Of a stretch of DNA of 64,000 nucleotides, positions 5,896-34,015 are shown piece by piece; position 1 is the stretch's first letter; each line of letters starts with the position of its first letter. Location of the stretch: positions 1-64,000 of the IMG/VR virus record IMGVR_UViG_3300028831_000229; one strand, 5' to 3'. The position numbers and the translations under genes were made by a program. The stretch comes from a virus. A model generated the notes under the pieces. The model worked only from the letters and a program-made list of their open reading frames with translations. It was not told the origin of the DNA and made no database searches.

Positions 5896-6887
5896 TGTCG
5901 ACAGAAGTCATCGGCGTCACCCTTACAAGCGTCAACCCGTCAACGCAGCTCTTGATCAGCGTGCCGGTAGACGCAGGTCAAGTTATCGCGCAAGAGGGTG
6001 ACCTGCTGCTCTTTGCGTTCATCATCATGAACGACGCGGCTAACGACGCGACCGACTTCCGTACCGCGCTCCCGCTGCCGACCGGTTGGCAACACGCTGG
6101 CTTCACGCAGACTGCGACGAACCGGGTCATCTGGGCCTTCAAGTACGTCGAGCTGGACGACCCGACGTTCTACGCGTTCACGTACCTCGCTTCCACAACC
6201 ATGGCCGGCATCATGTTCGCTGTGCGCGGTGCCGCAAGAAGCTGGGACACGTTCACGCCTGTGTTCACTCCTCCGAACTTCACACTGCCGAGCGCGTCGT
6301 TCACGAGCGGCTTCTTCGCACCAGCTGGAAGTGTTGGGGCGGTTGTGACCGGGACGAGCACATCGTTGACCACCGTGTCCGGATCCTTTCCACACACGGT
6401 GCCGGCGTCAACGCGCGTGCTGTACGTGGCGATGCAGATCGATCAGACAGGCACCACGCCGCTCTTCGATGATCCTGTGCCGCTTCCGACGCTTCGTCAG
6501 AGCGCGTTCGTCGGCACCAACGGCATCCTGCCGGCGACCCTGCCGTTCATGTTCGGCGTTGGTGACACGATGACGGTGATGGCGTTCGACGTCGACTATA
6601 CGGCTGCGAATCAGGTGCCGCCTCCTGCGATCGGCATCAACTCGAACCTTTCGCGTGCGTTCGTGGTCTCGTCGATCGCCGTGGAAGCCTTCGATGTTCT
6701 CGACGGCACCGAGGACAACTACAAGGGGAAGCTGATGCGCGGCTTGCTCAAGCATCCGTGGGACACTTCCTGGGGTTCTGGGCTAAGCGACGTCCTCACG
6801 GTCATCGGCTCGGTAGACAACGACATCGGAGGTCTGTTCGGCAGCGACGACTTCCTGCCCAACGGTGATAAGCTGTCGTCTCAGTAA
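5895..6887 (+). CDS. Virion structural protein, hypothetical
   Basis: Thr/Ser-rich ORF coupled to baseplate J; GDLLL..LPTGW motif seen in tail proteins. Confidence 0.5.
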   Translation: MSTEVIGVTLTSVNPSTQLLISVPVDAGQVIAQEGDLLLFAFIIMNDAANDATDFRTALPLPTGWQHAGFTQTATNRVIWAFKYVELDDPTFYAFTYLASTTMAGIMFAVRGAARSWDTFTPVFTPPNFTLPSASFTSGFFAPAGSVGAVVTGTSTSLTTVSGSFPHTVPASTRVLYVAMQIDQTGTTPLFDDPVPLPTLRQSAFVGTNGILPATLPFMFGVGDTMTVMAFDVDYTAANQVPPPAIGINSNLSRAFVVSSIAVEAFDVLDGTEDNYKGKLMRGLLKHPWDTSWGSGLSDVLTVIGSVDNDIGGLFGSDDFLPNGDKLSSQ

Positions 6888-22002: not shown

Positions 22003-23046
22003 ATGCCGGTCAACTTCCATGCGCTGAATCGAGCCTTCGATCTCGAGGGCTACCTCAAGCAGTACGACACGGACGCGAAGCACTACGGCGCGAACATCGC
22101 CGTCCGCGATCCGGTGTGCGGCAAGGACCACAAGCTCTGGGTGCTCATCTCGGACAAGCAGGACGGCACCAAGGCCGGAGCGTGGATCTGCTACTACTGC
22201 AACGAGAGCGGCATGACGCCGCTCCAGCTTGTGCAACGCGTGGAGGACTGCAACCTCTTCCACGCGATCGAGGTGATGACCCAGCACCAGGTCGGCAATC
22301 GACCTGTAGCTGACCTGCGTGCGCTCGTCATCAACACGCTGGACGGCGTGAGCGACGTGGAAGAGTGGGACGACAAGCCAGTCACGCCGGTGCCGCTACC
22401 GCTGGAGATGGTCAAGGCCGGCATTCGGAATCTGCCACCGTACTTCAAGCAGCGCGGCATCTACCTCAAGCGGGCGCTGCGACACGATCTCGGATGGTGC
22501 GAGGACGGCTACTTCGCCAATCGGATGATCGTGCCGGTGTTCGACCACGAAGACCGCCAGGTGTTTTTCGTGGCGCGCTACATGAAGCCCAAGCCACCGA
22601 AGGGCGTCAAGAAAACGCTCTATCCGAAGGGGTGTCATCCGAACCGCGTGCTCTTCAACTACTCGCGCGCGAAGCGCGAGGATCGCATCATCATCGTGGA
22701 GGATGTCTTCTCTGCGATGGCCATCGGCAAGGAAGCGGTGGCGTCGTTCGGGACGTCGTTCTCCCAGTACCAGTTGGATCTGCTGCTGCGCACCGCAGCC
22801 AGCGAGATCGTCATCATCTGGGACCTCGATGCCGGTGCCAAGAAGGGGCAGAGCGGCTACGAGAAGGCGCAGAAGCTGGCGTTGCGGCTGTCCGAGTTCT
22901 GGACGGTGCGCGTGGTGAAGCTGCCGGACGAACGCGATCCGGACGAGATACCACGCGAAGAGCTGGAGGAGCTGATCGCTGGGAGCGAGCCGCTTGACCA
23001 GCGTGCAGCGTTCAAGAGCTACGTGCTCTCGAGGCTGGCGCCGTGA
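22003..23046 (+). CDS. DNA primase (DnaG-like, Zn-binding plus TOPRIM)
   Basis: DPVC..H..CYYC; NRMIVPVFD; IIIVEDVFSA; WDLD; DPDE. Confidence 0.88.
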   Translation: MPVNFHALNRAFDLEGYLKQYDTDAKHYGANIAVRDPVCGKDHKLWVLISDKQDGTKAGAWICYYCNESGMTPLQLVQRVEDCNLFHAIEVMTQHQVGNRPVADLRALVINTLDGVSDVEEWDDKPVTPVPLPLEMVKAGIRNLPPYFKQRGIYLKRALRHDLGWCEDGYFANRMIVPVFDHEDRQVFFVARYMKPKPPKGVKKTLYPKGCHPNRVLFNYSRAKREDRIIIVEDVFSAMAIGKEAVASFGTSFSQYQLDLLLRTAASEIVIIWDLDAGAKKGQSGYEKAQKLALRLSEFWTVRVVKLPDERDPDEIPREELEELIAGSEPLDQRAAFKSYVLSRLAP

Positions 23047-23261
23047 GGCATGCTGGCATGCCAGGAAGGCCAGGAAACCAGGTTTTGCAGGCATTCACAG
23101 CAGGCAGCCTTGTAAGTATGCGAAATCACACAGGTTCTGGCATCCTCGTCGAGTAAACGGCGCGCTCTGTCTAGGTGCAGGCAAAGGAGGCGGCGAGCAG
23201 CGGCGGCATGCTCGCAGCCTGAAAACGCAAAGACCGCCAGCCAAGTCGGAGGCTCACGCCC

Positions 23262-23342
23262 ATGAAGACTACGAAGACCTGGATCGTTCAGCACATCATC
23301 CATCAGATCCGCACCGCCAAGGCACAGGCGGTGCAGTCGTGA
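23262..23342 (+). CDS. 26-aa small ORF (MKTTKTWIVQHIIHQIRTAKAQAVQS)
   Basis: GGAGG RBS; stop overlaps next GTG. Confidence 0.4.
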   Translation: MKTTKTWIVQHIIHQIRTAKAQAVQS

Positions 23343-23545
23343 CGCGCGTCGGCTTCATCCTGAAGTGGTCCGGCAGCGAGTTCTACTTCTCGCACATGCT
23401 ACGGGACGAGCTGACCATGTCGCTGGAGATGAGCCACGCGTGGTTCACGGAAGAGGAGTCCGTGGCGAAAGGCATGGCCGCTCAGCTCAAGCAAGCAACG
23501 CGCAGCGACTTTGAAGTCGTGCCCTACGTTCACGAGGTGCAGTGA
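23339..23545 (+). CDS. Hypothetical protein
   Basis: GTGA coupling; phage-like codon usage. Confidence 0.5.
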   Translation: MTRVGFILKWSGSEFYFSHMLRDELTMSLEMSHAWFTEEESVAKGMAAQLKQATRSDFEVVPYVHEVQ

Positions 23546-23739
23546 TGTCCAAGCGCATCGAGTCGTTGATCGCGATGAACCTCAAGCTGACCGCTGCGGT
23601 CAAGCAGTCGGATCTCATGCTGGCAGCTGCGCAAGCTGCCGGCTTCGACCCGACCAGCGTGCTGGCGCTCGAGTCCGCCAACGCGGCACTCCGCCAGCTC
23701 ACGCGCGAAGCCATCGCGCTCCGTGATGAGGTGCCGTGA
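23545..23739 (+). CDS. Hypothetical protein
   Basis: TGATG coupling, GAGG RBS. Confidence 0.5.
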   Translation: MSKRIESLIAMNLKLTAAVKQSDLMLAAAQAAGFDPTSVLALESANAALRQLTREAIALRDEVP

Positions 23740-23915
23740 TGCCGAAGCCGCCACCTCTTCCAACGCTGTACCCAGACAGCGGTGACGGCGATCGCGACAT
23801 CACGGATGACGTCAACAGCCTCATCCTCAACCAGTGGATCGTCGTGTGGGCTCGCCCCACGAAGCCGATGGATCCTGACGTCTTGGAGAAACTGCTCGCA
23901 GAGTGCAGGAGATGA
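23739..23915 (+). CDS. Hypothetical protein, 58 aa (MPKPPPLPTLYPD...)
   Basis: TGATG coupling; translated by hand. Confidence 0.45.
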   Translation: MPKPPPLPTLYPDSGDGDRDITDDVNSLILNQWIVVWARPTKPMDPDVLEKLLAECRR

Positions 23916-24271
23916 ACATGTCACGCACGCAACACGCCAGGAAGCCGAAGACCGAACGCCGCGTCAACCGCCCGTCCTTGTACGAGGCGCACACCGGCAC
24001 GCTCGGCACGATCGCCAAGGAGTCGAAGACCGCATCCGAGTTCGCGCGCCGCGCTGAAGCGTGGAACGCGAGCAATGCCCGCCAGCTCAGCGATCGTGAG
24101 TTGGTCGACGCTTACATGCCGGCCTACCAGCGCGCCACCGATCTGCACCACCGTGCAGCGTTGCGCAACCTGGAGCAGCTGGTTCGTATGGCTCGCGAGA
24201 CGCGCCTCGCGTCTCGTCACAAACTGTGGAACAAGCTCGCGAACGACGTCGACAATGGGGTCGAGTCGTAA
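23912..24271 (+). CDS. Hypothetical protein
   Basis: ATGA coupling, AGGAG RBS. Confidence 0.5.
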   Translation: MNMSRTQHARKPKTERRVNRPSLYEAHTGTLGTIAKESKTASEFARRAEAWNASNARQLSDRELVDAYMPAYQRATDLHHRAALRNLEQLVRMARETRLASRHKLWNKLANDVDNGVES

Positions 24272-24316
24272 CCGCGAGTTGTTGAACTAGCAGAGAAGAA
24301 AGACAGGAGAACCGTT

Positions 24317-25159
24317 ATGACGATTGCACTTTCCCCGTTCACGATGCCCGCCGCTCTCGCTGCCGCTGATCAGATCCTCGGCCCCAACACGGTCTGGTCC
24401 GGTAACCCGGACAACGAGGAGCAGACCGAATGGCTCAAGACGTTCCGCGACCGCGCGCGCAGCGCTCGCTTCATGCCGGAGATCAAGAGCAACGCCACGA
24501 ACGACGTGAGCCAGCATGTCAGCTGGCTCATGGAGCAGGGGTGGCACGCGCAGATCACGCAGGGTCAGCCGAACGACCTGTTCCTCGCCAGCACGCTCGA
24601 CATCGCGGCGAAGTGGCAGACGGCCGGCAAGCCGACCGTGGAGCAGGGCATCGATCGCGTCTACATGAAGAAGGGAGGACACGCCAGCACGACGCGAACG
24701 AACGCGCACCCGGTGGTGGAGGTGAAGACGCAGATCGATGGCGTCAGCTTCTTCTTCCAGCAGGTCGACGTCGCGCCGGAGACGCGCAGTGACCTGATGC
24801 ATCGTGCGATGCGCATGGTGAACGACGAGGTCTACGAGGAGGTGAACTTCGACTTCCCGATGGTCGACACGCTCGCTCGCAGCGATGCCGAGTACATGCT
24901 CGGTCTGCGCAGCGGCCAGAACGTTGTGACCCAGGCCGCCGAGCAGTATAGGCTCCAGATGAACCACATCGGCGGTCGCGCTCGCGCGGCTGCGGAGGTG
25001 GCTGTGTCCAGGGGCTTCAGCATGGACGAGACGCGGACGGTCAAGATCACCGGACCATTCGTCGTGGTGGTGAGCTACGCGACCTCGGCCACGCCGGTTG
25101 CGTTCGCGATGTACTGCGACCGCAGCACGTGGAAGAAGCCGGCCGACAACTTCATCTAG
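24317..25159 (+). CDS. Serpin-like protein (compact, divergent)
   Basis: Serpin-like segments in the correct order: SPFTMPAALA, FLASTLDIAAKW, VNFDFPMV, QMNHIGGRARAAAEV (hinge), VKITGPFVVVV. Confidence 0.65.
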   Translation: MTIALSPFTMPAALAAADQILGPNTVWSGNPDNEEQTEWLKTFRDRARSARFMPEIKSNATNDVSQHVSWLMEQGWHAQITQGQPNDLFLASTLDIAAKWQTAGKPTVEQGIDRVYMKKGGHASTTRTNAHPVVEVKTQIDGVSFFFQQVDVAPETRSDLMHRAMRMVNDEVYEEVNFDFPMVDTLARSDAEYMLGLRSGQNVVTQAAEQYRLQMNHIGGRARAAAEVAVSRGFSMDETRTVKITGPFVVVVSYATSATPVAFAMYCDRSTWKKPADNFI

Positions 25160-25256
25160 TCGGCGCACGCTCGAAGACTGAATAGCGCTGCAAAGGGGTA
25201 GGTTGTGTTGTAGCGCTGCTCGGTCAGTCGACCGTCAACAACAAGGAGTCGGAATC

Positions 25257-25460
25257 GTGAAGACCCAGAAGCAACCCATCAATCTGCTCAACGAGTCACA
25301 GTGGACGAGCGAGCTGGCACGGCTCCAGGAGCGCATGGAGCGCATCGTCGCTCTCAGGCGCGGCCAGGCTGAAGCCGTCGTCATCAACGTCCGCGCCTAC
25401 CGTGTGCCGGCGCGTTTCGTCCCGGCCAGCAAGCGCACCATCATCCGCTACAAGAAGTAG
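25257..25460 (+). CDS. Hypothetical protein
   Basis: AAGGAG RBS before GTG 25257. Confidence 0.5.
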   Translation: MKTQKQPINLLNESQWTSELARLQERMERIVALRRGQAEAVVINVRAYRVPARFVPASKRTIIRYKK

Positions 25461-25470
25461 GAGGCTCGCC

Positions 25471-25590
25471 ATGACGCCTGAAGAACTACGCCGTGAGTTC
25501 AACTACCAGCGCTCGACCTTCAACAACCCGTGGGTGGTGATCGTGCTCATCATCGCGGCTGCCATCGTGCTCGGAACGTGGGGCGTGTGA
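25471..25590 (+). CDS. Small membrane protein
   Basis: AGGAGG RBS; TM segment WVVIVLIIAAAIVLGTW. Confidence 0.55.
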   Translation: MTPEELRREFNYQRSTFNNPWVVIVLIIAAAIVLGTWGV

Positions 25591-26219
25591 TGGCGCACCA
25601 CTCGATGTGCGATGGCAACGACTGCGACGTCTACGGCTGCAAGCGACCGCGAGCATCGAAGACGCGCTCGCGTACCTTCGACCGCATGCGCGGGCAGATC
25701 GCGAGCGCCTACCTGCACGCAGTCAAGACACACGAACCGATCACCGTCACCTTCAAGCGCTGCCTGGATGCGATCGACGAAGTCGACGTGACCGCGACGC
25801 AGCGCAAGACGTTGCAAGACGCGCTCTGGGCGACCCGTGAGTTCGTGGTGGCAGAGCACGCGCGCTGGCAGCTCTACATCAAGACACCGGATGACACGGA
25901 CGGTCTACCGATCGCACGTAACTGGGCATCGCGGCGAAATGTCACACACTACAGAGGCGTCTGCTGGACACCACTGACCAGTGACGAAATCAGCGCGCTA
26001 CGCGAAGCCGGTGACGAACACGTCTGGTCGCGTGTGCACGGTCGCATGGAGTGGCGCGACTCGCAAAAGCCGTTCTATGAGGACGAACCTCCGCAGCCGC
26101 TTTCTACCCCACAGGCCGCACCAAAGAACGGTGAGCGTCCGTGCACCAACTGCGGCGCCACTCTTGGCTACGAAACCGCAACCGATCGCTATGAGCGCTG
26201 CCGCAGCTGCGGCGCGTAG
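25590..26219 (+). CDS. Hypothetical protein with Cys motifs (C-terminal CxxC..CxxC)
   Basis: TGATG coupling; CTNC and CRSC. Confidence 0.5.
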   Translation: MAHHSMCDGNDCDVYGCKRPRASKTRSRTFDRMRGQIASAYLHAVKTHEPITVTFKRCLDAIDEVDVTATQRKTLQDALWATREFVVAEHARWQLYIKTPDDTDGLPIARNWASRRNVTHYRGVCWTPLTSDEISALREAGDEHVWSRVHGRMEWRDSQKPFYEDEPPQPLSTPQAAPKNGERPCTNCGATLGYETATDRYERCRSCGA

Positions 26220-26229
26220 GAGAACTCAC

Positions 26230-26592
26230 ATGACAACAACACCAACCCACGTCTTCCTCCACATCGAAGACGACCCGTCTGTTCAGGCAATGATGAAGCG
26301 CTTCTTCCAGCGCAAGTACCCGAACGCGATCGCCTTCACGACCGACACGGTCATGGATGCCATCGCGTTCTTCAAGAGCGTGCAGACCGATCTGGTGGTC
26401 TGCGACTTCAACCTAAAAGACGGCCACGGTGACGAGGTGCTGGCCTGGCTTCAGATTCACCAGCCCGCGCTGGTCGATCGCTTCGTCTTCTTGTCGGACG
26501 ACGAGCGCATCAAGACGCACAAGCACTGGATCGAGAAGCCGGCTGACATTCACGTCATCACAGCGAAGCTCGCGGAAGTCCTGAAGCCGTGA
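26230..26592 (+). CDS. Stand-alone response-regulator receiver (CheY-like) domain
   Basis: HIEDD, DLVVCDFNLKDGHG (phosphoacceptor Asp), FVFLS, IEKP; AGGAG RBS. Confidence 0.85.
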   Translation: MTTTPTHVFLHIEDDPSVQAMMKRFFQRKYPNAIAFTTDTVMDAIAFFKSVQTDLVVCDFNLKDGHGDEVLAWLQIHQPALVDRFVFLSDDERIKTHKHWIEKPADIHVITAKLAEVLKP

Positions 26593-28506: not shown

Positions 28507-29706
28507 ATGGTGGAAAGACGCAGAGCCGTGCGTTTGCGCGTCGTATACCGGCGCGTCCATTGTCCGTTCGGTCGCAACCCGTACAGCGACGCGTTCCGAG
28601 AGAAGGAGCTGGTGGAGAACGGCGGCTGGCGTGAGCGTGGTGAGACGCTTGATCCTCGGTACCGCACCAGCGGACCGATTGCGAGCGCCTTGACGTGTGA
28701 AGGACCCGACCAGGCGGCGGAGGAGGTCTTCGGACCGTTCACGTTCCTCCACAACTGCTACTTGGACAGCTCGATGCCGGAGCACCCGTGCTTCGGTTGC
28801 AAGCAAGCCAAGAAGTGGCGCACGTCGCTCGGTCTTCGTACCTTCCGCGTCGTGACCGAGTTGACGCACGTCAACACGCTAGGTCAGCCGCATCAAGACC
28901 ACCCGATGCAGGTGGTCTACTTGCCGCTCAACCAGGAAGGCACCGAGTGGTACGCGATGAACGCGTTCACCGGCGAACGGAAAGAGGTGGTGCGATCCGT
29001 AGTGGAGCACCGCCGCGAAGACGGCACGCTCATCACGACGACCTACCCGCGGCGCACGCCGCTCGGTAACGACCTGGAGCAGGACGTCGACACGCTGGAC
29101 CGTGAAGCGTGCGATGCTCAGCTCAAGCGAGGCGGCATGTTCAACGTGCCGTCACATGGTCCCGTGTGGAGCGGTGTCGAGTCACGAACCAAATGGAGGT
29201 GCGCGTGTGCAACGTGCACAGGACAGGAGCAGAAGATGATCAAAGAGAAGATGAGTCCGCAGGAAGTTGAAGACGCCGTGCGCGCGCTGAACGTCAACGC
29301 GCACGGCATCCGCAAGAGCGCTCACGACTACCCGAGCGCACCGGCCACGCCGGTCACCATGAACCGGAAGCCGACGCCGGAGCCGAAGCTGGCGATCGCT
29401 GAGATGTTCAAGAAGGACAAGACGCCGGCAGTCGGCGAGGTCTGGCGCCCGGAGCCCGGCAAGAATCAGGTCCGCGTGGTGCCGCTCGACCTCTCGAAGA
29501 AGACGCCGAAGAAGCACGCGGCCGAGAAGCTCCGCAGGCAGAGCCAAGGCGACGACTACGTCACGCCGTCCCAGGCGCTGTCAGAGGGCTTTCGTACGAT
29601 GACTGACAAGCCGAAGACGCTGGCGCTGGCGTCTTCGGTCAAGAAGACCAGCGCCACGTCCGCAACGCCACCCGTGAAGACCAAGGACGGTCGGAGGAAG
29701 AAATGA
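28507..29706 (+). CDS. Hypothetical protein with Cys motifs and a Lys/Pro-rich tail
   Basis: Purine-rich leader; ATGA-coupled to the AAA+ gene. Confidence 0.55.
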   Translation: MVERRRAVRLRVVYRRVHCPFGRNPYSDAFREKELVENGGWRERGETLDPRYRTSGPIASALTCEGPDQAAEEVFGPFTFLHNCYLDSSMPEHPCFGCKQAKKWRTSLGLRTFRVVTELTHVNTLGQPHQDHPMQVVYLPLNQEGTEWYAMNAFTGERKEVVRSVVEHRREDGTLITTTYPRRTPLGNDLEQDVDTLDREACDAQLKRGGMFNVPSHGPVWSGVESRTKWRCACATCTGQEQKMIKEKMSPQEVEDAVRALNVNAHGIRKSAHDYPSAPATPVTMNRKPTPEPKLAIAEMFKKDKTPAVGEVWRPEPGKNQVRVVPLDLSKKTPKKHAAEKLRRQSQGDDYVTPSQALSEGFRTMTDKPKTLALASSVKKTSATSATPPVKTKDGRRKK

Positions 29707-30875
29707 CTGCCGCGAAGGCTGCGAAGGTTGCTTGCCGCATCTGCAAGCGCGAGGAGCATATCCTCGTTGACCACATCACCAAGAAGCACGACACCGATCC
29801 AGTGGCGTACCTGGACAAGTACCCGGGCGCGCCGCTCTGGAGCACGTACGGTCTCCAGAAACTCAAGGAGATCCACAACGGCAGCGCCGTGGTCACCGCA
29901 ACGCCGCGTCCTCGGCGCAAGGTCGCCATGAAGAAGCTCTTCCCCGACTTCGGCAAGAAGTCCGGCCTGGAGCTGGTCGGCGACTACGAGGTGTTCGACA
30001 CGCCTGGTCCGCTGACTCCGAAGCGTGATCCGTATTTCCTCTTCCCGGAGGAGACCACGCTCGACTTCCTGCCGATCATCGAGCTGCCGTCGCGCAACCG
30101 CGTCTACATCCAAGGACCGCCCGGCACTGGCAAGTCCACGTTCGCCTTCCAGGTCGCGGCGGTCTTGAACGCCGAGATGCTGGAGTGGAACGCGGACGCG
30201 TTCATCCAGCGCTCCACGCTGATCGGCCAGTACCTGGTCATCAACGGCGAGACTGTCTGGGTGGATGGCATCCTGCCGCGCGCGATGCGCGGTGGCTACT
30301 GGCTCGTGATCAACGAGGTCGACATGCTCGACCCGTTGACCATGAACATCCTCAAGCCTGTCTTGGAGGATCCGCCGCGCTTGACCATCCTCGAGCACGG
30401 CGGTGAGATCGTCTACGCGCATCCAGACTTCCGCATCATCGCATGCGCGAACACCTGGGGTCGTGGCGACTCGACTGGCATGTTCGTCAACGCGCAGACG
30501 CACAGCATGGCCGACACGAACCGCTGGGCGCTGAAGCTGCGCATGAACTACCTCGACAAGGACGACGAGGCGCAGCTGCTCCGCAACTACTTCCCTGGTC
30601 GCCTTGGTGACGAGGAGAAGGAGGAGTCACCGAAGGACTCGCCCGAGAAGTTCATCGCGGTGGCCACGAAGGTGCGCGAGGCGCAGCAAGCTGGCAAGAT
30701 CGACTACACTGTGAGCCCTCGCGAGCTGGTCAACTGGGTCGAGAAGTACCTCGTGCTCGGCAAAGGCGTGCACCACGCCGCGCGCCGCACTTTCCTCGAC
30801 GCCTTGGAGCCGGACGTGAGCCACGCGATCCTCGAGTACATCAACGCCGAGTTCGGACAGGAGACGACGCCATGA
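29703..30875 (+). CDS. CobS/MoxR-like AAA+ ATPase with N-terminal Zn finger
   Basis: GPPGTGKST, WVDGILPRAM, VINEVD, HPDFRIIACANT, SPREL; CRIC..H..H. Confidence 0.88.
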   Translation: MTAAKAAKVACRICKREEHILVDHITKKHDTDPVAYLDKYPGAPLWSTYGLQKLKEIHNGSAVVTATPRPRRKVAMKKLFPDFGKKSGLELVGDYEVFDTPGPLTPKRDPYFLFPEETTLDFLPIIELPSRNRVYIQGPPGTGKSTFAFQVAAVLNAEMLEWNADAFIQRSTLIGQYLVINGETVWVDGILPRAMRGGYWLVINEVDMLDPLTMNILKPVLEDPPRLTILEHGGEIVYAHPDFRIIACANTWGRGDSTGMFVNAQTHSMADTNRWALKLRMNYLDKDDEAQLLRNYFPGRLGDEEKEESPKDSPEKFIAVATKVREAQQAGKIDYTVSPRELVNWVEKYLVLGKGVHHAARRTFLDALEPDVSHAILEYINAEFGQETTP

Positions 30876-31075: not shown

Positions 31076-31637
31076 CAGCCAACCGATGCACGCGTACCTC
31101 GTGAACGAGGATGAGAACAAGCAGTTCTTCATCGCCGTCCTCATGAACGAGCGCGACAACGATCAGTGGACGGTCTACACCGCCTGGGGGTTCACTGACT
31201 CGCACACGGTGCGTGGCGAGAAGGAGTACAACGGCGGCAAGGGCGGCGACAAGTTCTCCGGTCAGCGCAACGCAGAGGCGTACGCTGGCGCCATCTTGAA
31301 GACGAAGCAAGGCGACGGATTCAAGGTGCGTCCGAACGACGACGTCGAAGGCGAGCGTCCGATGTGGTGGGAGCAATGCGTCGAGCGCGGTGGTGAGCGC
31401 TACGGCGGCAAGGCGCCGGTGACCAAGCCGGTCGGTCTCAGCAAGACGAAGAGCCCGCCTCCGGTCTCGACCAGAGACATCACCACGCTCAAGGAGCGCA
31501 TGGCAGCCAAGGTGAAGATCGAGGCAGGCAAGGCCAAGATCGCCATCAAGCAGGACGGCAGCCAGGACTCAGAACCCGAACAACCGAAGCGCGTCATCCA
31601 GCCGCGGTTCGGCTTCGCACCGAGGAAGCAGCCATGA
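31062..31637 (+). CDS. WGR-like domain protein
   Basis: YL..NKQFFI..VYTAWGF..KTKQGDGF pattern; WGF in place of WGR. Confidence 0.55.
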   Translation: MAAGSSQPMHAYLVNEDENKQFFIAVLMNERDNDQWTVYTAWGFTDSHTVRGEKEYNGGKGGDKFSGQRNAEAYAGAILKTKQGDGFKVRPNDDVEGERPMWWEQCVERGGERYGGKAPVTKPVGLSKTKSPPPVSTRDITTLKERMAAKVKIEAGKAKIAIKQDGSQDSEPEQPKRVIQPRFGFAPRKQP

Positions 31638-34015
31638 CCGCAGCACCGGCTGTCTCGTCACGCAAGCGCGAGGCGTTGAACATCTCCATCGAGGACTTCA
31701 AGTCCGGGATGGAGAAGTTCGCCATGATGTTCACCGGCAACTACGGCGTGCAGCTCGTGTTCCGCGGCACGTCCGCGTACACGAACGGCAAGATCATCGT
31801 GGTGCCGGAGTTGAGCCTGCTCTCGCGCCCGAACATGACCGATGCCGAGATCGATGAAGCGCTCGAGTTCCTGATGTGCACGCGTGGCTTCGTCTACCAC
31901 GAAGGCGCGCACATCATCTTCAGTGGTGACATCACGTCGATCGTCCGATCGGCGATGCGCGTCAGCCCGAAGTTCAAGCATCTGTGGAACGTCATCGAAG
32001 ACCTGCGTGTCGAGAACAGCATCGCCAATCTGTACCCGGGTGCTCGCGAAGCGCTGGTCTTCATGAACGACTGGTTGCAGACCAGCATCGCCAAGAAGCT
32101 GGAAGCCGCTGGTGGTACGCTCTCACCGTTCGCGGCCACCTGTTACGCGATCGGGCTCATCGGCACGCTGTCAGGTCGCGGTGAAGACCACCAGCTGTGG
32201 TCGATGCTGAACGAGCAGACTCGCGAGTACGTGACCAGCATCCGCAAGCTGGTGATGCGTGCACGCAACGCGCAGAGCCCCAAGGTGGCGTACAAGATCG
32301 CGCTGGAGATCTGGAACCACCTGAAGGACGAAGAGGAGCGACGGAAGCAGGAGAAGAAGCGCCAGCGGGACGAAGAGAAGGCCAAGGCCGGCAAGAAGAC
32401 CAAGAAGGAGAAAAGCGATGGCAAGAGCAAGCGCAAGCCCAAGAAGCCCAAAGCTTCGTCCAAAGACGACGAAGGCGAGGACGACGACGCGTCCGGTGGC
32501 GCTCCTCTGGACGAAGACGACACCGACCAGGACGACGCTTCAGACGGCGGTGACGACGACGATGCCGGAGATGATTCTTCTGGAGATGAGGAGGGCGCTG
32601 AAGGAGACGGTGACGACGATGAATCTGCCGATGACGAAGGCGACGACGACGGTGACGGTGACGATCACGGTGACGGAGGACGAGGAGATGACGACGGAGA
32701 CGATGCCGCTACCGAAGAAGCGCCGGAGCCGGACCCTGCGCTAGATGCCGACGAGCAACTCGTTGGTGATGAAGCCGACGAGTCCGACAAGGCCGAGGAG
32801 AAGGAAGAGACCATCCGCGAGCGGATGAAGAACGAGGTCAAGCAGACGCTCGCGGTCGGCGAGCGGCGGTACCGTGTCTACACCACGGAGCACGATGTGA
32901 TCGGACCACCGCCCAAGCCGCCCAGCGATGACGACCTGCAACGCTACCGGCAGTTCGTCAACCGGCTCGATGAGGAGACCCGCTTCGCATACGGACCGGT
33001 GAAGCGCCAGCTCGAGAACCTCCTCAAGGCGCAGACGCACTCGTTCTACATCCACGGCCTCGACGCCGGAGAGCTGGACCCGGCAGCCCTCCACAGGCTA
33101 GCATCGGCGGCCAATGGTGGTCCGCAGATGAAGGCTCAGGCGCAGTACGTCTTCCGTGAGAAGGTGCGCGCGAAGAGCCTCAAGAGCACCGATGTCGAGA
33201 TCGTGATCGATGTCAGTGGCAGCATGGGGTGTGCAGGCAAGGACGTCTCGCTCTGGCACTGCCAGCAGTGCGACACCGAAGCCGAGCACCTGGTGGTGCC
33301 GCCGTCCATCGACTACTATCACTTCAGCGCTGCTCACCGGCTGGAGCTACCGAAGACGCACACGCACGAGTGCCCGTCGTGTGGGGTGATGACGCTCCAC
33401 AAGCTGGTGAAGGCCCCGGAGTGGGAAGCGAAGATCTCGCTCGCACGGAAGTGCGCGCTGGTCTTCGCTCACTCGCTGGAGTCCGTGCATGTGCCGTTCG
33501 ACATGTACACCTACACGACCGAAGATCCCGGGATGTCGGAGCGCGTGCTGGAGGAGATCCGCGACCGCTCCGTGGACGAGTACAACGAGGTGCGCCAGCT
33601 CTACTCGCGGTTCGGCGGTCTTCACATCATGGACATCAAGCGCTTCGATGAGCGCTGGGCGAACGTGATGTGGAGGCTTGCGCACGTCAACGCCGCGATG
33701 TGCAACTACGACGGCGAGTCGCTGCGGATCGGCGCGCAGCGGCTGATGGCGCGACGCAGCCAACGCAAGGTGATGTTCGTCCTGTGCGACGGCATCCCTG
33801 GTCCGTGCGCAAGCGAGTCGACGGAAGCGCACCGGCTGTACCTGCACGACGTGGTCAAGGAGATCCGCAGCGCCACGCCGATCGAGATCGTGTGCATCGG
33901 AATCGGTGCGCCGGAGGCTGCGGAGTTCTACAACCCGGGGTATGTCAACGTGATGAACGCCAAACAGCTCCCGGCGATCTGCATCCAGCAACTCAAACGC
34001 GTGTTGCTTCAGTAA
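31634..34015 (+). CDS. CobT-like VWA protein (N-terminal HExxH, acidic linker, MIDAS)
   Basis: AYTNG, YHEGAH, NVIEDLRVE; Asp-rich linker; IDVSGSM, NYDGE, RKVMFVLCDG, CIGIG. Confidence 0.85.
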   Translation: MTAAPAVSSRKREALNISIEDFKSGMEKFAMMFTGNYGVQLVFRGTSAYTNGKIIVVPELSLLSRPNMTDAEIDEALEFLMCTRGFVYHEGAHIIFSGDITSIVRSAMRVSPKFKHLWNVIEDLRVENSIANLYPGAREALVFMNDWLQTSIAKKLEAAGGTLSPFAATCYAIGLIGTLSGRGEDHQLWSMLNEQTREYVTSIRKLVMRARNAQSPKVAYKIALEIWNHLKDEEERRKQEKKRQRDEEKAKAGKKTKKEKSDGKSKRKPKKPKASSKDDEGEDDDASGGAPLDEDDTDQDDASDGGDDDDAGDDSSGDEEGAEGDGDDDESADDEGDDDGDGDDHGDGGRGDDDGDDAATEEAPEPDPALDADEQLVGDEADESDKAEEKEETIRERMKNEVKQTLAVGERRYRVYTTEHDVIGPPPKPPSDDDLQRYRQFVNRLDEETRFAYGPVKRQLENLLKAQTHSFYIHGLDAGELDPAALHRLASAANGGPQMKAQAQYVFREKVRAKSLKSTDVEIVIDVSGSMGCAGKDVSLWHCQQCDTEAEHLVVPPSIDYYHFSAAHRLELPKTHTHECPSCGVMTLHKLVKAPEWEAKISLARKCALVFAHSLESVHVPFDMYTYTTEDPGMSERVLEEIRDRSVDEYNEVRQLYSRFGGLHIMDIKRFDERWANVMWRLAHVNAAMCNYDGESLRIGAQRLMARRSQRKVMFVLCDGIPGPCASESTEAHRLYLHDVVKEIRSATPIEIVCIGIGAPEAAEFYNPGYVNVMNAKQLPAICIQQLKRVLLQ

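Follow-up and report, generated by a model that had tools for sequence, protein, structure and literature searches.

A minimal, unannotated branch of the serpin superfamily carried by a phage, and its possible role as a cytoplasmic protease inhibitor

Is a short protein of a bacterial virus a serpin, and if it is, what might it still be able to inhibit? Serpins are suicide-type inhibitors of proteases, familiar from animals and poxviruses. We examined this question for one open reading frame (ORF) in a window of 64,000 nt, which spans positions 1 to 64,000 of the IMG/VR virus record IMGVR_UViG_3300028831_000229. The ORF (24317–25159, plus strand) starts with ATG, encodes 280 amino acids plus a stop codon and is preceded by a good Shine-Dalgarno sequence; an initial annotation, made from the sequence alone, had delimited it in the same way as the program-made ORF list and had named its product a phage-encoded serpin-like protein. 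That identity is supported both by structure and by sequence profiles, and we regard it as nearly certain that the window protein is homologous to serpins and shares their fold. The phage origin holds as well: the source record is 117,941 bp long and 100% complete by CheckV, and its PHROGs matches include baseplate proteins, two helicases, a ribonucleotide reductase, a primase, a DNA polymerase, an SbcC-like nuclease and a large terminase.

We predicted the structure with AlphaFold2 on an alignment of 57 close relatives (A1). The model has a predicted local distance difference test score (pLDDT) of 91.4, a predicted template-modelling (TM) score of 0.88 and a single low-confidence stretch at about residues 221–240. 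A Foldseek search of the PDB returned 337 chains at E ≤ 0.001, and among the matches listed all are serpins, with query-normalised TM scores of 0.52–0.66; they include miropin (E = 5.0e-13), alpha-1-antitrypsin, PEDF, antithrombin, PAI-1, C1-inhibitor and Hsp47. When VIA-align was run against 48,161 representative chains, serpins occupied ranks 1–29 (Z = 15.8 to 5.9) and the first non-serpin scored Z = 4.5, so that the match lies far above chance by either method. Native, loop-exposed serpins aligned over 237–258 of the 280 residues from model residue 1 onward (Z = 13–16), while cleaved serpins aligned to residues 1–219 only (Z of about 8). The higher scores of the native serpins indicate that the model represents a native-state serpin with a free loop. 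In the ESM Atlas, the nearest structural cluster (TM = 0.86) is automatically named 'Serpin domain-containing protein'; PF00079 is assigned to 17% of its members, and for the few that have a record the most frequent phylum is Uroviricota. The predicted structure therefore has the native-state serpin fold with sheets A, B and C. The combination of AlphaFold and Foldseek had been proposed at the outset as a check, with the absence of sheet A and of an exposed reactive loop as the outcome that would speak against a serpin; the fold obtained is that of a serpin, with a reactive loop that is exposed and predicted at low confidence.

We reject the possibility that AlphaFold2 was merely remembering serpins, because sequence-only evidence independently agrees. 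A profile of A1 matched 30 PDB sequences at E ≤ 10, of which 29 are serpins, all aligned at the segment running from strand s5A through the hinge and loop to strand s4B; the best E-value was 0.007 and the sole non-serpin scored 0.44. With an alignment of 130 diverse relatives (A2), the profile matched PAI-1 at 6.8e-10 and 136 PDB sequences at E ≤ 1. Taken individually, 83 of the 130 members of A2 matched PF00079 at E ≤ 0.01 (best 2.1e-10). Of 10 relatives sampled, six matched PF00079 with 16.1–26.3 bits, in each case at model positions 298–367 of 370 only; the gathering score of that model is 27 bits, an operational threshold rather than a biological definition, and the window protein stays below it. 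We also assembled 16 canonical serpin domains from genomes of one bacterial phylum (A3) and 20 members of the wider family (A4). Alignment of A2 with A3 by hhalign gave a probability of 96.1% and E = 3e-9 over 240 columns, placing residues 24–268 of the window protein opposite canonical residues 91–366. Across 101 genomes of the same phylum, the A2 profile cross-matched the C-terminal part of canonical serpins in 11 genomes, and all of these cross-matches fell within matches to PF00079. PF00079 itself found no match in the Haliangiales genome that carries two full-length short serpins. By profile methods, homology to bona fide serpins is thus detectable at the level of sequence.

The five segments on which the initial annotation was built are all present in the translation: SPFTMPAALA (residues 6–15), FLASTLDIAAKW (89–100), VNFDFPMV (176–183), QMNHIGGRARAAAEVAVSRG (214–233) and VKITGPFVVVV (242–252). 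In the profile-profile alignment, four of the five lie opposite the landmarks named for them, namely LVLTNAIYFxAxW of s3A, the LPKF turn (P181 opposite its Pro), the DEEGTEAAAATA hinge and RPFxFxI of s4B. The N-terminal SP..(S/T)..AL segment falls outside the local hhalign alignment; the structural alignments do include it, beginning with model residue 1, which lies opposite serpin residues 22–62, past helix A. The conservation maxima of A2 coincide with these landmarks. W100 and P181 are invariant (130 of 130), at least 90% conservation is found at W27, G104, T138, G196, A207, G219, P247, F248, W272 and P275, and M10, A13, L14, P247 and F248 are invariant in A1.

How much of a serpin is left? 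The canonical domains that we compared have 363–387 amino acids, bearing out the remark that this protein is shorter than typical serpins. Because the full canonical set of elements (helices A–I and a five-stranded sheet A) is incomplete, we class it as a truncated variant and not as a typical member. The model retains sheets B and C, strands s1A, s3A, s5A and s6A, helices B, E, F and G/H, and the exposed reactive-centre loop. What is missing, about 90 residues in all, comprises helices A, C and D and the bulk of s2A; helix F is shortened and several loops are trimmed. We mapped the missing elements by combining the hhalign sequence alignment with DSSP assignments of two predicted structures, the second being a canonical reference domain folded by AlphaFold2 (pLDDT 86.0). 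Its elements are, in order, helix A (2–13), s6B (20–22), helix B (24–35), helix C (40–50), helix D (56–75), s2A (86–96), helix E (103–113), s1A (117–120), helix F (122–140), s3A (158–172), sheets C and B, helices G/H, s2C, s6A, helix I, s5A (303–316), s4B (347–353) and s5B (359–365). The window model begins with s6B (4–5) and helix B (9–21) and passes directly to the tail of s2A, where N24...W27 lies opposite canonical N91...W94; W27, nearly invariant in the 130 sequences, is the remnant of the s2A 'NxxW'. Helix E (34–50), s1A (56–61), helix F (64–73) and s3A (87–97, leading to W100) follow, and the remainder keeps the canonical order with shorter loops. The earlier statement that no signal peptide is present is consistent with the model, in which residues 1–21 are assigned to s6B and helix B with a pLDDT of 94–97. 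The features of the gene and its product are as follows.

24305–24309 (+): Shine-Dalgarno AGGAG, 7 nt 5′ of the ATG, read from the sequence.
24317–25159 (+): short-serpin gene, 280 amino acids; ORF list, 87 close relatives, AlphaFold2 pLDDT 91.4, predicted serpin fold, hhalign E = 3e-9.
24332–24361 (+): SPFTMPAALA, s6B into helix B with no helix A before it; residues 6–15, DSSP strand 4–5 and helix 9–16.
24371–24400 (+): junction lacking helices C, D and most of s2A (about 55 residues); residues 19–28, hhalign N24 opposite N91.
24416–24535 (+): helix E (34–50), s1A (56–61) and short helix F (64–73); residues 34–73, DSSP through hhalign.
24575–24616 (+): s3A ending in invariant Trp100; residues 87–100, opposite LVLTNAIYFxAxW.
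24842–24865 (+): VNFDFPMV, s2C/s6A turn, equivalent of LPKF; residues 176–183, hhalign, P181 in 130 of 130.
24920–24961 (+): s5A running into the hinge; residues 202–215, DSSP strand 202–215, canonical s5A 303–316.
24962–25036 (+): hinge and exposed reactive-centre loop; residues 216–240, low pLDDT, alignment with the PAI-1 and canonical hinges.
25010–25015 (+): Arg232-Gly233, putative P1-P1′ (or P2-P1); residue conservation, hhalign.
25040–25117 (+): s1C, s4B (GPFVVVV) and s5B; residues 242–267, DSSP strands 241–243, 248–254 and 261–267.

The two AlphaFold2 models differ in the loop. In the canonical reference (the L034 domain), residues 319–331 of the hinge and proximal loop form a strand that continues s5A (strands 303–316 and 319–331), whereas the loop of the short serpin is predicted to be free, with a short helix at 224–227. 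This difference between predictions may reflect training bias rather than biology.

Whether such a reduced fold could inhibit a protease depends on its hinge and loop. We numbered the positions by setting residue 217 to P17 and counted residues in the 130 sequences of A2. The family has Glu (68) or His (41) at P17, Gly (126) at P15, Ala (106) or Gly (13) at P14, Arg (77) or Lys (15) at P13, Ala (94) or Val (24) at P12, Glu, Gln, Lys or Arg at P11, Ser (73) or Ala (38) at P10, Ala (108) or Gly (8) at P9 and Ala (51) or Val (46) at P8; Met, Val, Ile or Leu follows at P6 and Val, Met or Ile at P4, with no common Pro. Even positions, which would face the core upon insertion, are thus small or hydrophobic and odd positions are polar, including an outward-facing P11 that is polar or charged. 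At the level of sequence, this alternation is the signature of a loop built for insertion as strand s4A. Inhibitory serpins have a consensus hinge with Glu at P17, Gly at P15, Thr or Ser at P14, Ala, Gly or Ser from P12 to P9, and no Pro. The family agrees with it at P17, P15, P12, P10 and P9 and has Ala or Gly instead of Thr or Ser at P14.

Within the loop, Arg232 is conserved as Arg in 53 of 57 sequences of A1 and as Arg (86) or Lys (10) in 96 of the 130 sequences of A2. The next residue is mostly Gly (67), Ser (26) or Cys (12), and past this point both the sequence and the length of the loop differ among members. In copies borne by phages, the reactive centre reads TRG, TRS, MRG, MRC, LRC, FRC or TRC. 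Two tandem bacterial paralogues differ there, with ILGG in one and PRGG in the other, a divergence that resembles diversifying serpin paralogues.

The family to which this protein belongs has escaped annotation. The window protein has one insignificant match in PHROGs (E = 0.36), none in NCBIfam or PADLOC, and none by phmmer against all PDB sequences; a tblastn search of 50,697 deposited phage genomes returned nothing with it as query, and two distant relatives used as queries likewise returned nothing. When the 130 members of A2 were searched against PHROGs, no PHROG was found to contain the family, and one member matched a DnaB-like PHROG through an extension. A word-indexed protein search recovered 88 proteins including the query, nearly all of 270–300 amino acids and none with a precomputed Pfam domain, and an exhaustive phmmer search of 1.84 billion representatives yielded 546 clusters at E ≤ 0.001, 147 at E ≤ 1e-10 and 16 at E ≤ 1e-30. 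The proteins recovered by phmmer are mostly 275–300 amino acids long, with a minority that carry N-terminal extensions. The family is a new, minimal and unannotated branch of a well-known superfamily, here borne by a phage. As its 546 representative clusters are invisible to Pfam, NCBIfam and PHROGs, the present picture of how serpins are distributed among prokaryotes and where they originated is incomplete, and a profile model of its own is needed to annotate the family even if its members are not inhibitors.

Members with N-terminal extensions of 140–300 residues include P0122 (514 amino acids), P0130 (584 amino acids), P0136, P0137, P0158 and P0194. Among the 130 sequences of A2, two have matches to the divergent DnaB-like ATPase family PF20307 and one to the DnaB-like PHROG, which hints at proteins in which a short serpin is fused to an ATPase.

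We then compared the surroundings of the gene. In the phage it lies directly after the primase gene, within a series of small unknown ORFs of the replication/early region. Its close relatives are found on three viral contigs (two of them from the same virus as a 117-kb metagenome contig), eight metagenome contigs, a contig of a Xanthobacteraceae metagenome-assembled genome and a 589-kb Haliangiales contig; members of the wider family occupy seven more viral contigs of 26–435 kb. The ORFs that flank the serpin at nine such loci have no homologue anywhere in the 118-kb phage, and the serpin is the sole family common to 14 phage and bacterial contexts. Other groups that appeared at several loci were rejected as shadow ORFs overlapping the serpin gene. 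The same applies in the window to an antisense ORF of 293 amino acids (24287–25168), which is longer than the serpin ORF and which we reject as a shadow ORF of this 62% G+C DNA; its apparent homologues at other loci always overlap the serpin gene. On the Haliangiales chromosome, two tandem copies adjoin genes for an aldehyde:ferredoxin oxidoreductase and an IS200-like transposase.

L005 4955–5863 and about 6001–6831 (= G001:C1:228746–229579 and 229717–230547): tandem Haliangiales paralogues.

Within the same phylum, full-length short serpins occur in one of 101 genomes, the seed genome, and canonical serpins in 40 of 101. This distribution marks the short-serpin gene as a rare accessory gene, mobile and stand-alone, of phages and bacteria alike.

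What could such a gene do for a phage? The initial annotation had suggested an inhibitor that acts in the cytoplasm on protease-based defence or on host proteases. This proposal would fit our results, because the hinge is of the inhibitor type, the Arg is conserved, no leader is present and no phage protease is detectable. We judge it somewhat probable that the protein is a functional suicide inhibitor. Most members, including the window protein, begin about five residues ahead of s6B, and the product would therefore be expected to stay in the cytoplasm. No match to the Pfam models of Trypsin, Trypsin_2, S8 subtilase, C14 caspase, S78 or ClpP was found in the complete 117,941-bp genome; the S77 model also had no match in the phage, and since its control matched no genome that result is uninformative. 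The absence of a detected phage protease, together with the lone travel of the gene between unrelated phages and bacteria, points to a host-encoded target. Such travel resembles that of accessory counter-defence genes.

In the mechanism that we favour, the miniaturised serpin would be made in the cytoplasm of the infected cell, where a host protease that cuts after Arg would attack the loop at Arg232-Gly233 and form an acyl (or thioacyl) intermediate. The hinge would then insert into sheet A between s3A and s5A, dragging the protease along and crushing it, an insertion that the small or hydrophobic residues at all inward-facing positions from P14 to P4 would aid. The likeliest target would be a freely accessible cytosolic Arg-specific protease, for example a caspase-like or trypsin-like defence effector. 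ClpP and Lon have chambered active sites that are closed to a folded 30-kDa serpin and are poor serpin targets, while free Arg-specific cytosolic proteases are now recognised as executioners of defence. Serpins can trap clan-CD cysteine proteases, as CrmA does with caspases and AtSerpin1 with metacaspase 9. The caspase-like effector of type IV Thoeris strictly depends on Arg at P1 flanked by small nonpolar residues, and the PCaspase of type III-B CRISPR is possibly of similar specificity (bioRxiv 10.1101/2024.10.24.620036). The family's bait, A-V-(T/S)-R-(G/S), would fit the specificity of the Thoeris caspase. Overall, we give about even chances that the protein acts in the cytoplasm as a suicide inhibitor of an Arg-specific protease of the host, which may be a caspase-like defence effector. 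A host Arg-specific protease as the target is, taken by itself, an evenly balanced proposition, and the further step that this protease is a defence effector is less likely than not.

Several observations weigh against an inhibitory, host-directed role. Searched singly, the window protein matches no Pfam family at E ≤ 10, and the Serpin model, which had been suggested as a first check, therefore failed to recognise it. Its own hinge, N216-H217-I-G219-G220-R-A222-R-A-A-A, has His at P17, Gly at P14 where the consensus has Thr or Ser, and Arg at both P13 and P11. The loop from G219 to P247 has 28 residues compared to 27 in canonical serpins, and a strict 17-residue count from residue 217 makes Gly233 the P1 residue and Arg232 the P2 residue, as in the alignment with PAI-1. 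The hhalign alignment, with a one-residue gap, instead places Arg232 opposite the canonical P1, which requires a loop one residue shorter; some inhibitory serpins have such a loop, a point that our literature search did not confirm. Several shutter residues are replaced, with canonical HKA becoming QA(A/L) and the Asn of NAIYF absent. A serpin that has lost helices A, C and D together with the bulk of s2A may lack metastability. Finally, no conserved partner gene lies within 6–10 kb on either side in the 14 contexts, leaving no neighbour clue to the target, and the presence of the family in an ordinary bacterial chromosome means that it is no specifically phage weapon.

One alternative is that the serpin fold has been kept without inhibition, as a scaffold that binds or chaperones a phage or host component in the manner of Hsp47, PEDF, maspin or ovalbumin. 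In its favour, roughly one quarter of the canonical fold has been lost, and this loss takes in most of s2A, the strand alongside the insertion site; the canonical shutter residues are replaced, and PEDF, Hsp47, maspin and angiotensinogen are among the top structural matches. However, non-inhibitory serpins characteristically lose the hinge consensus, whereas in this family the hinge is conserved best of all, its small or hydrophobic residues alternating with polar ones as expected of an inserting strand, and a conserved Arg followed by Gly or Ser within an otherwise variable, disordered loop looks like bait. We consider a non-inhibitory scaffold unlikely. The same structural and hinge evidence that argues for the favoured inhibitor would serve equally for an inhibitor of a housekeeping host protease, one that shields phage proteins from turnover as T4 PinA does by acting on Lon. 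The location of the gene in the replication/early region, between the primase and the small unknown ORFs, would suit this role, and the bacterial chromosomal copies suggest an endogenous protease partner in cells. But the main cytosolic serine proteases, ClpP and Lon, are chambered, and a patchy, mobile spread (one of 101 genomes of one phylum, no common neighbours) better fits an accessory gene in an arms race, making the housekeeping target quite unlikely.

A third candidate target would be the phage's own protease, with the serpin timing, for instance, prohead maturation or a lysis-related protease. Large tailed phages usually have a maturation protease, and in the half of the genome beyond the window the search covered seven Pfam models only. 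Nevertheless, the complete genome has no Trypsin, Trypsin_2, S8, C14, S78 or ClpP match, and the serpin sits amid entirely different gene sets in the 14 contexts, including a bacterial chromosome, with no phage protease travelling alongside it. Regulation of a phage protease is accordingly very improbable.

Comparison with known serpins places the proposed cytoplasmic, host-directed inhibitor in context. Canonical bacterial serpins (PF00079 / MEROPS I4; miropin 5ncs, tengpin 2pee, thermopin 1mtp/1sng) are homologous and have the same fold; miropin aligns with the window model over 258 residues at Z = 15.7. They have in common with the window protein the logic of the hinge, the invariant Trp of s3A, the Pro of LPKF and the Pro-Phe of s4B. 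The window protein is, in contrast, about 90 residues shorter and lies below PF00079 detection, and while the canonical serpin genes compared encode N-terminal hydrophobic or lipoprotein-like leaders, it starts at s6B with no leader. The poxvirus protein CrmA (SPI-2), which inhibits caspases, the cell-death proteases of the host, by the suicide mechanism, is likewise a virus-encoded, intracellular serpin of reduced size. Structural comparison gave Z = 5.9 with cleaved CrmA, 10.8 with a vaccinia K2 chain and 8.4 with myxoma SERP-1. A search of BFVD returned 28 matches at E ≤ 0.001, all named ones from eukaryotic viruses; the shortest that appear full-length have 306–320 amino acids, and CrmA has 341, compared to 280 here. 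Unlike CrmA, the window protein belongs to a bacterial virus and has Arg in place of Asp at the reactive centre. There is no sign of direct descent from serpins of eukaryotic viruses, and the proteins closest in sequence come from bacteria and phages.

A mechanistic model for action on bacterial caspase-like effectors would be AtSerpin1 of Arabidopsis (3le2), a top structural match with Z = 14.6. This cytosolic serpin has a P1 Arg followed by Gly and inhibits metacaspase 9, an Arg-specific clan-CD cysteine protease; it is a full-length plant serpin with a known partner, whereas the window protein is a short serpin with a putative target. Tad1 and Tad2 sponges are likewise phage accessory genes that block abortive-infection pathways. 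They act by sequestering a signalling nucleotide, and none inhibited type IV Thoeris (bioRxiv 10.1101/2024.10.24.620036). Unlike them, a serpin would covalently trap the effector protease itself.

In a more specific proposal, phage mini-serpins would be the bacterial-virus counterpart of CrmA and would covalently trap Arg-specific caspase-like executioners of abortive infection, namely the type IV Thoeris caspase, the type III CRISPR PCaspase and caspase-like CBASS/Avs effectors. We hold this proposal to be doubtful. If true, it would describe the first counter-defence class that works by irreversible protease inhibition, the strategy of a viral serpin directed against a host death protease would be common to bacterial and animal viruses, and a minimal scaffold of about 280 residues would redefine what the serpin mechanism needs. 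If the protein is inhibitory at all, phages would own a covalent protease trap, a kind of counter-defence so far undescribed, at a time when Arg-specific caspase-like executioners are emerging in several bacterial immune systems. The serpin mechanism is thought to need a finely balanced fold of about 350–400 residues; an inhibitory window protein would mean that a core of 280 residues suffices even when helices A, C and D and the greater part of s2A are gone, which would be relevant to serpin metastability and to the engineering of small serpins.

A literature search for phage serpins found no paper, with most subscription journals and supplements outside its reach. One candidate, PMC13552941, was rejected because serpinB12 appears in its reference list only. 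In the part available to us, the most comprehensive serpin phylogeny does not mention phages, and by design it discarded sequences more than 25% under the median length, thereby leaving out the present family (PMC8233489).

Among other observations on serpin genes, one bacterium of the same phylum carries five canonical serpin genes in tandem (G014:C1:3469071–3476021), each matching PF00079 at about 1e-115 to 1e-120, an array that is unusual for a bacterium. Several carriers of short serpins, either classed as viral or metagenomic, are large (L010, 461,400 bp; L049, 434,688 bp; L054, 390,884 bp; L053, 304,025 bp), and short serpins may be enriched in jumbo phages.

The neighbourhood of the gene in the window holds further features. 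A scan of 23000–26300 for promoters and terminators gave no promoter-like site and one terminator-like site on the minus strand, below the counts in shuffled sequence, and is uninformative. Three genes downstream of the serpin, an ORF at 26218–26592 (plus strand) encodes a stand-alone response-regulator receiver domain of 124 amino acids (PF00072, E = 4.1e-9, above the cut-off; phrog_731), which might serve the phage as a decoy in, or a modulator of, the two-component signalling of its host. A 390-amino acid ORF at 29703–30875 (plus strand) weakly matches two PADLOC IetA models (E = 1.5e-5 and 1.3e-4) over the stretch 115–175, probably through a merely common ATPase motif. Further along, the 793-amino acid protein encoded at 31634–34015 (plus strand) matches phrog_1576, of unknown function, at E = 1e-69, and its C-terminal part is weakly of the CobT / cobaltochelatase type.

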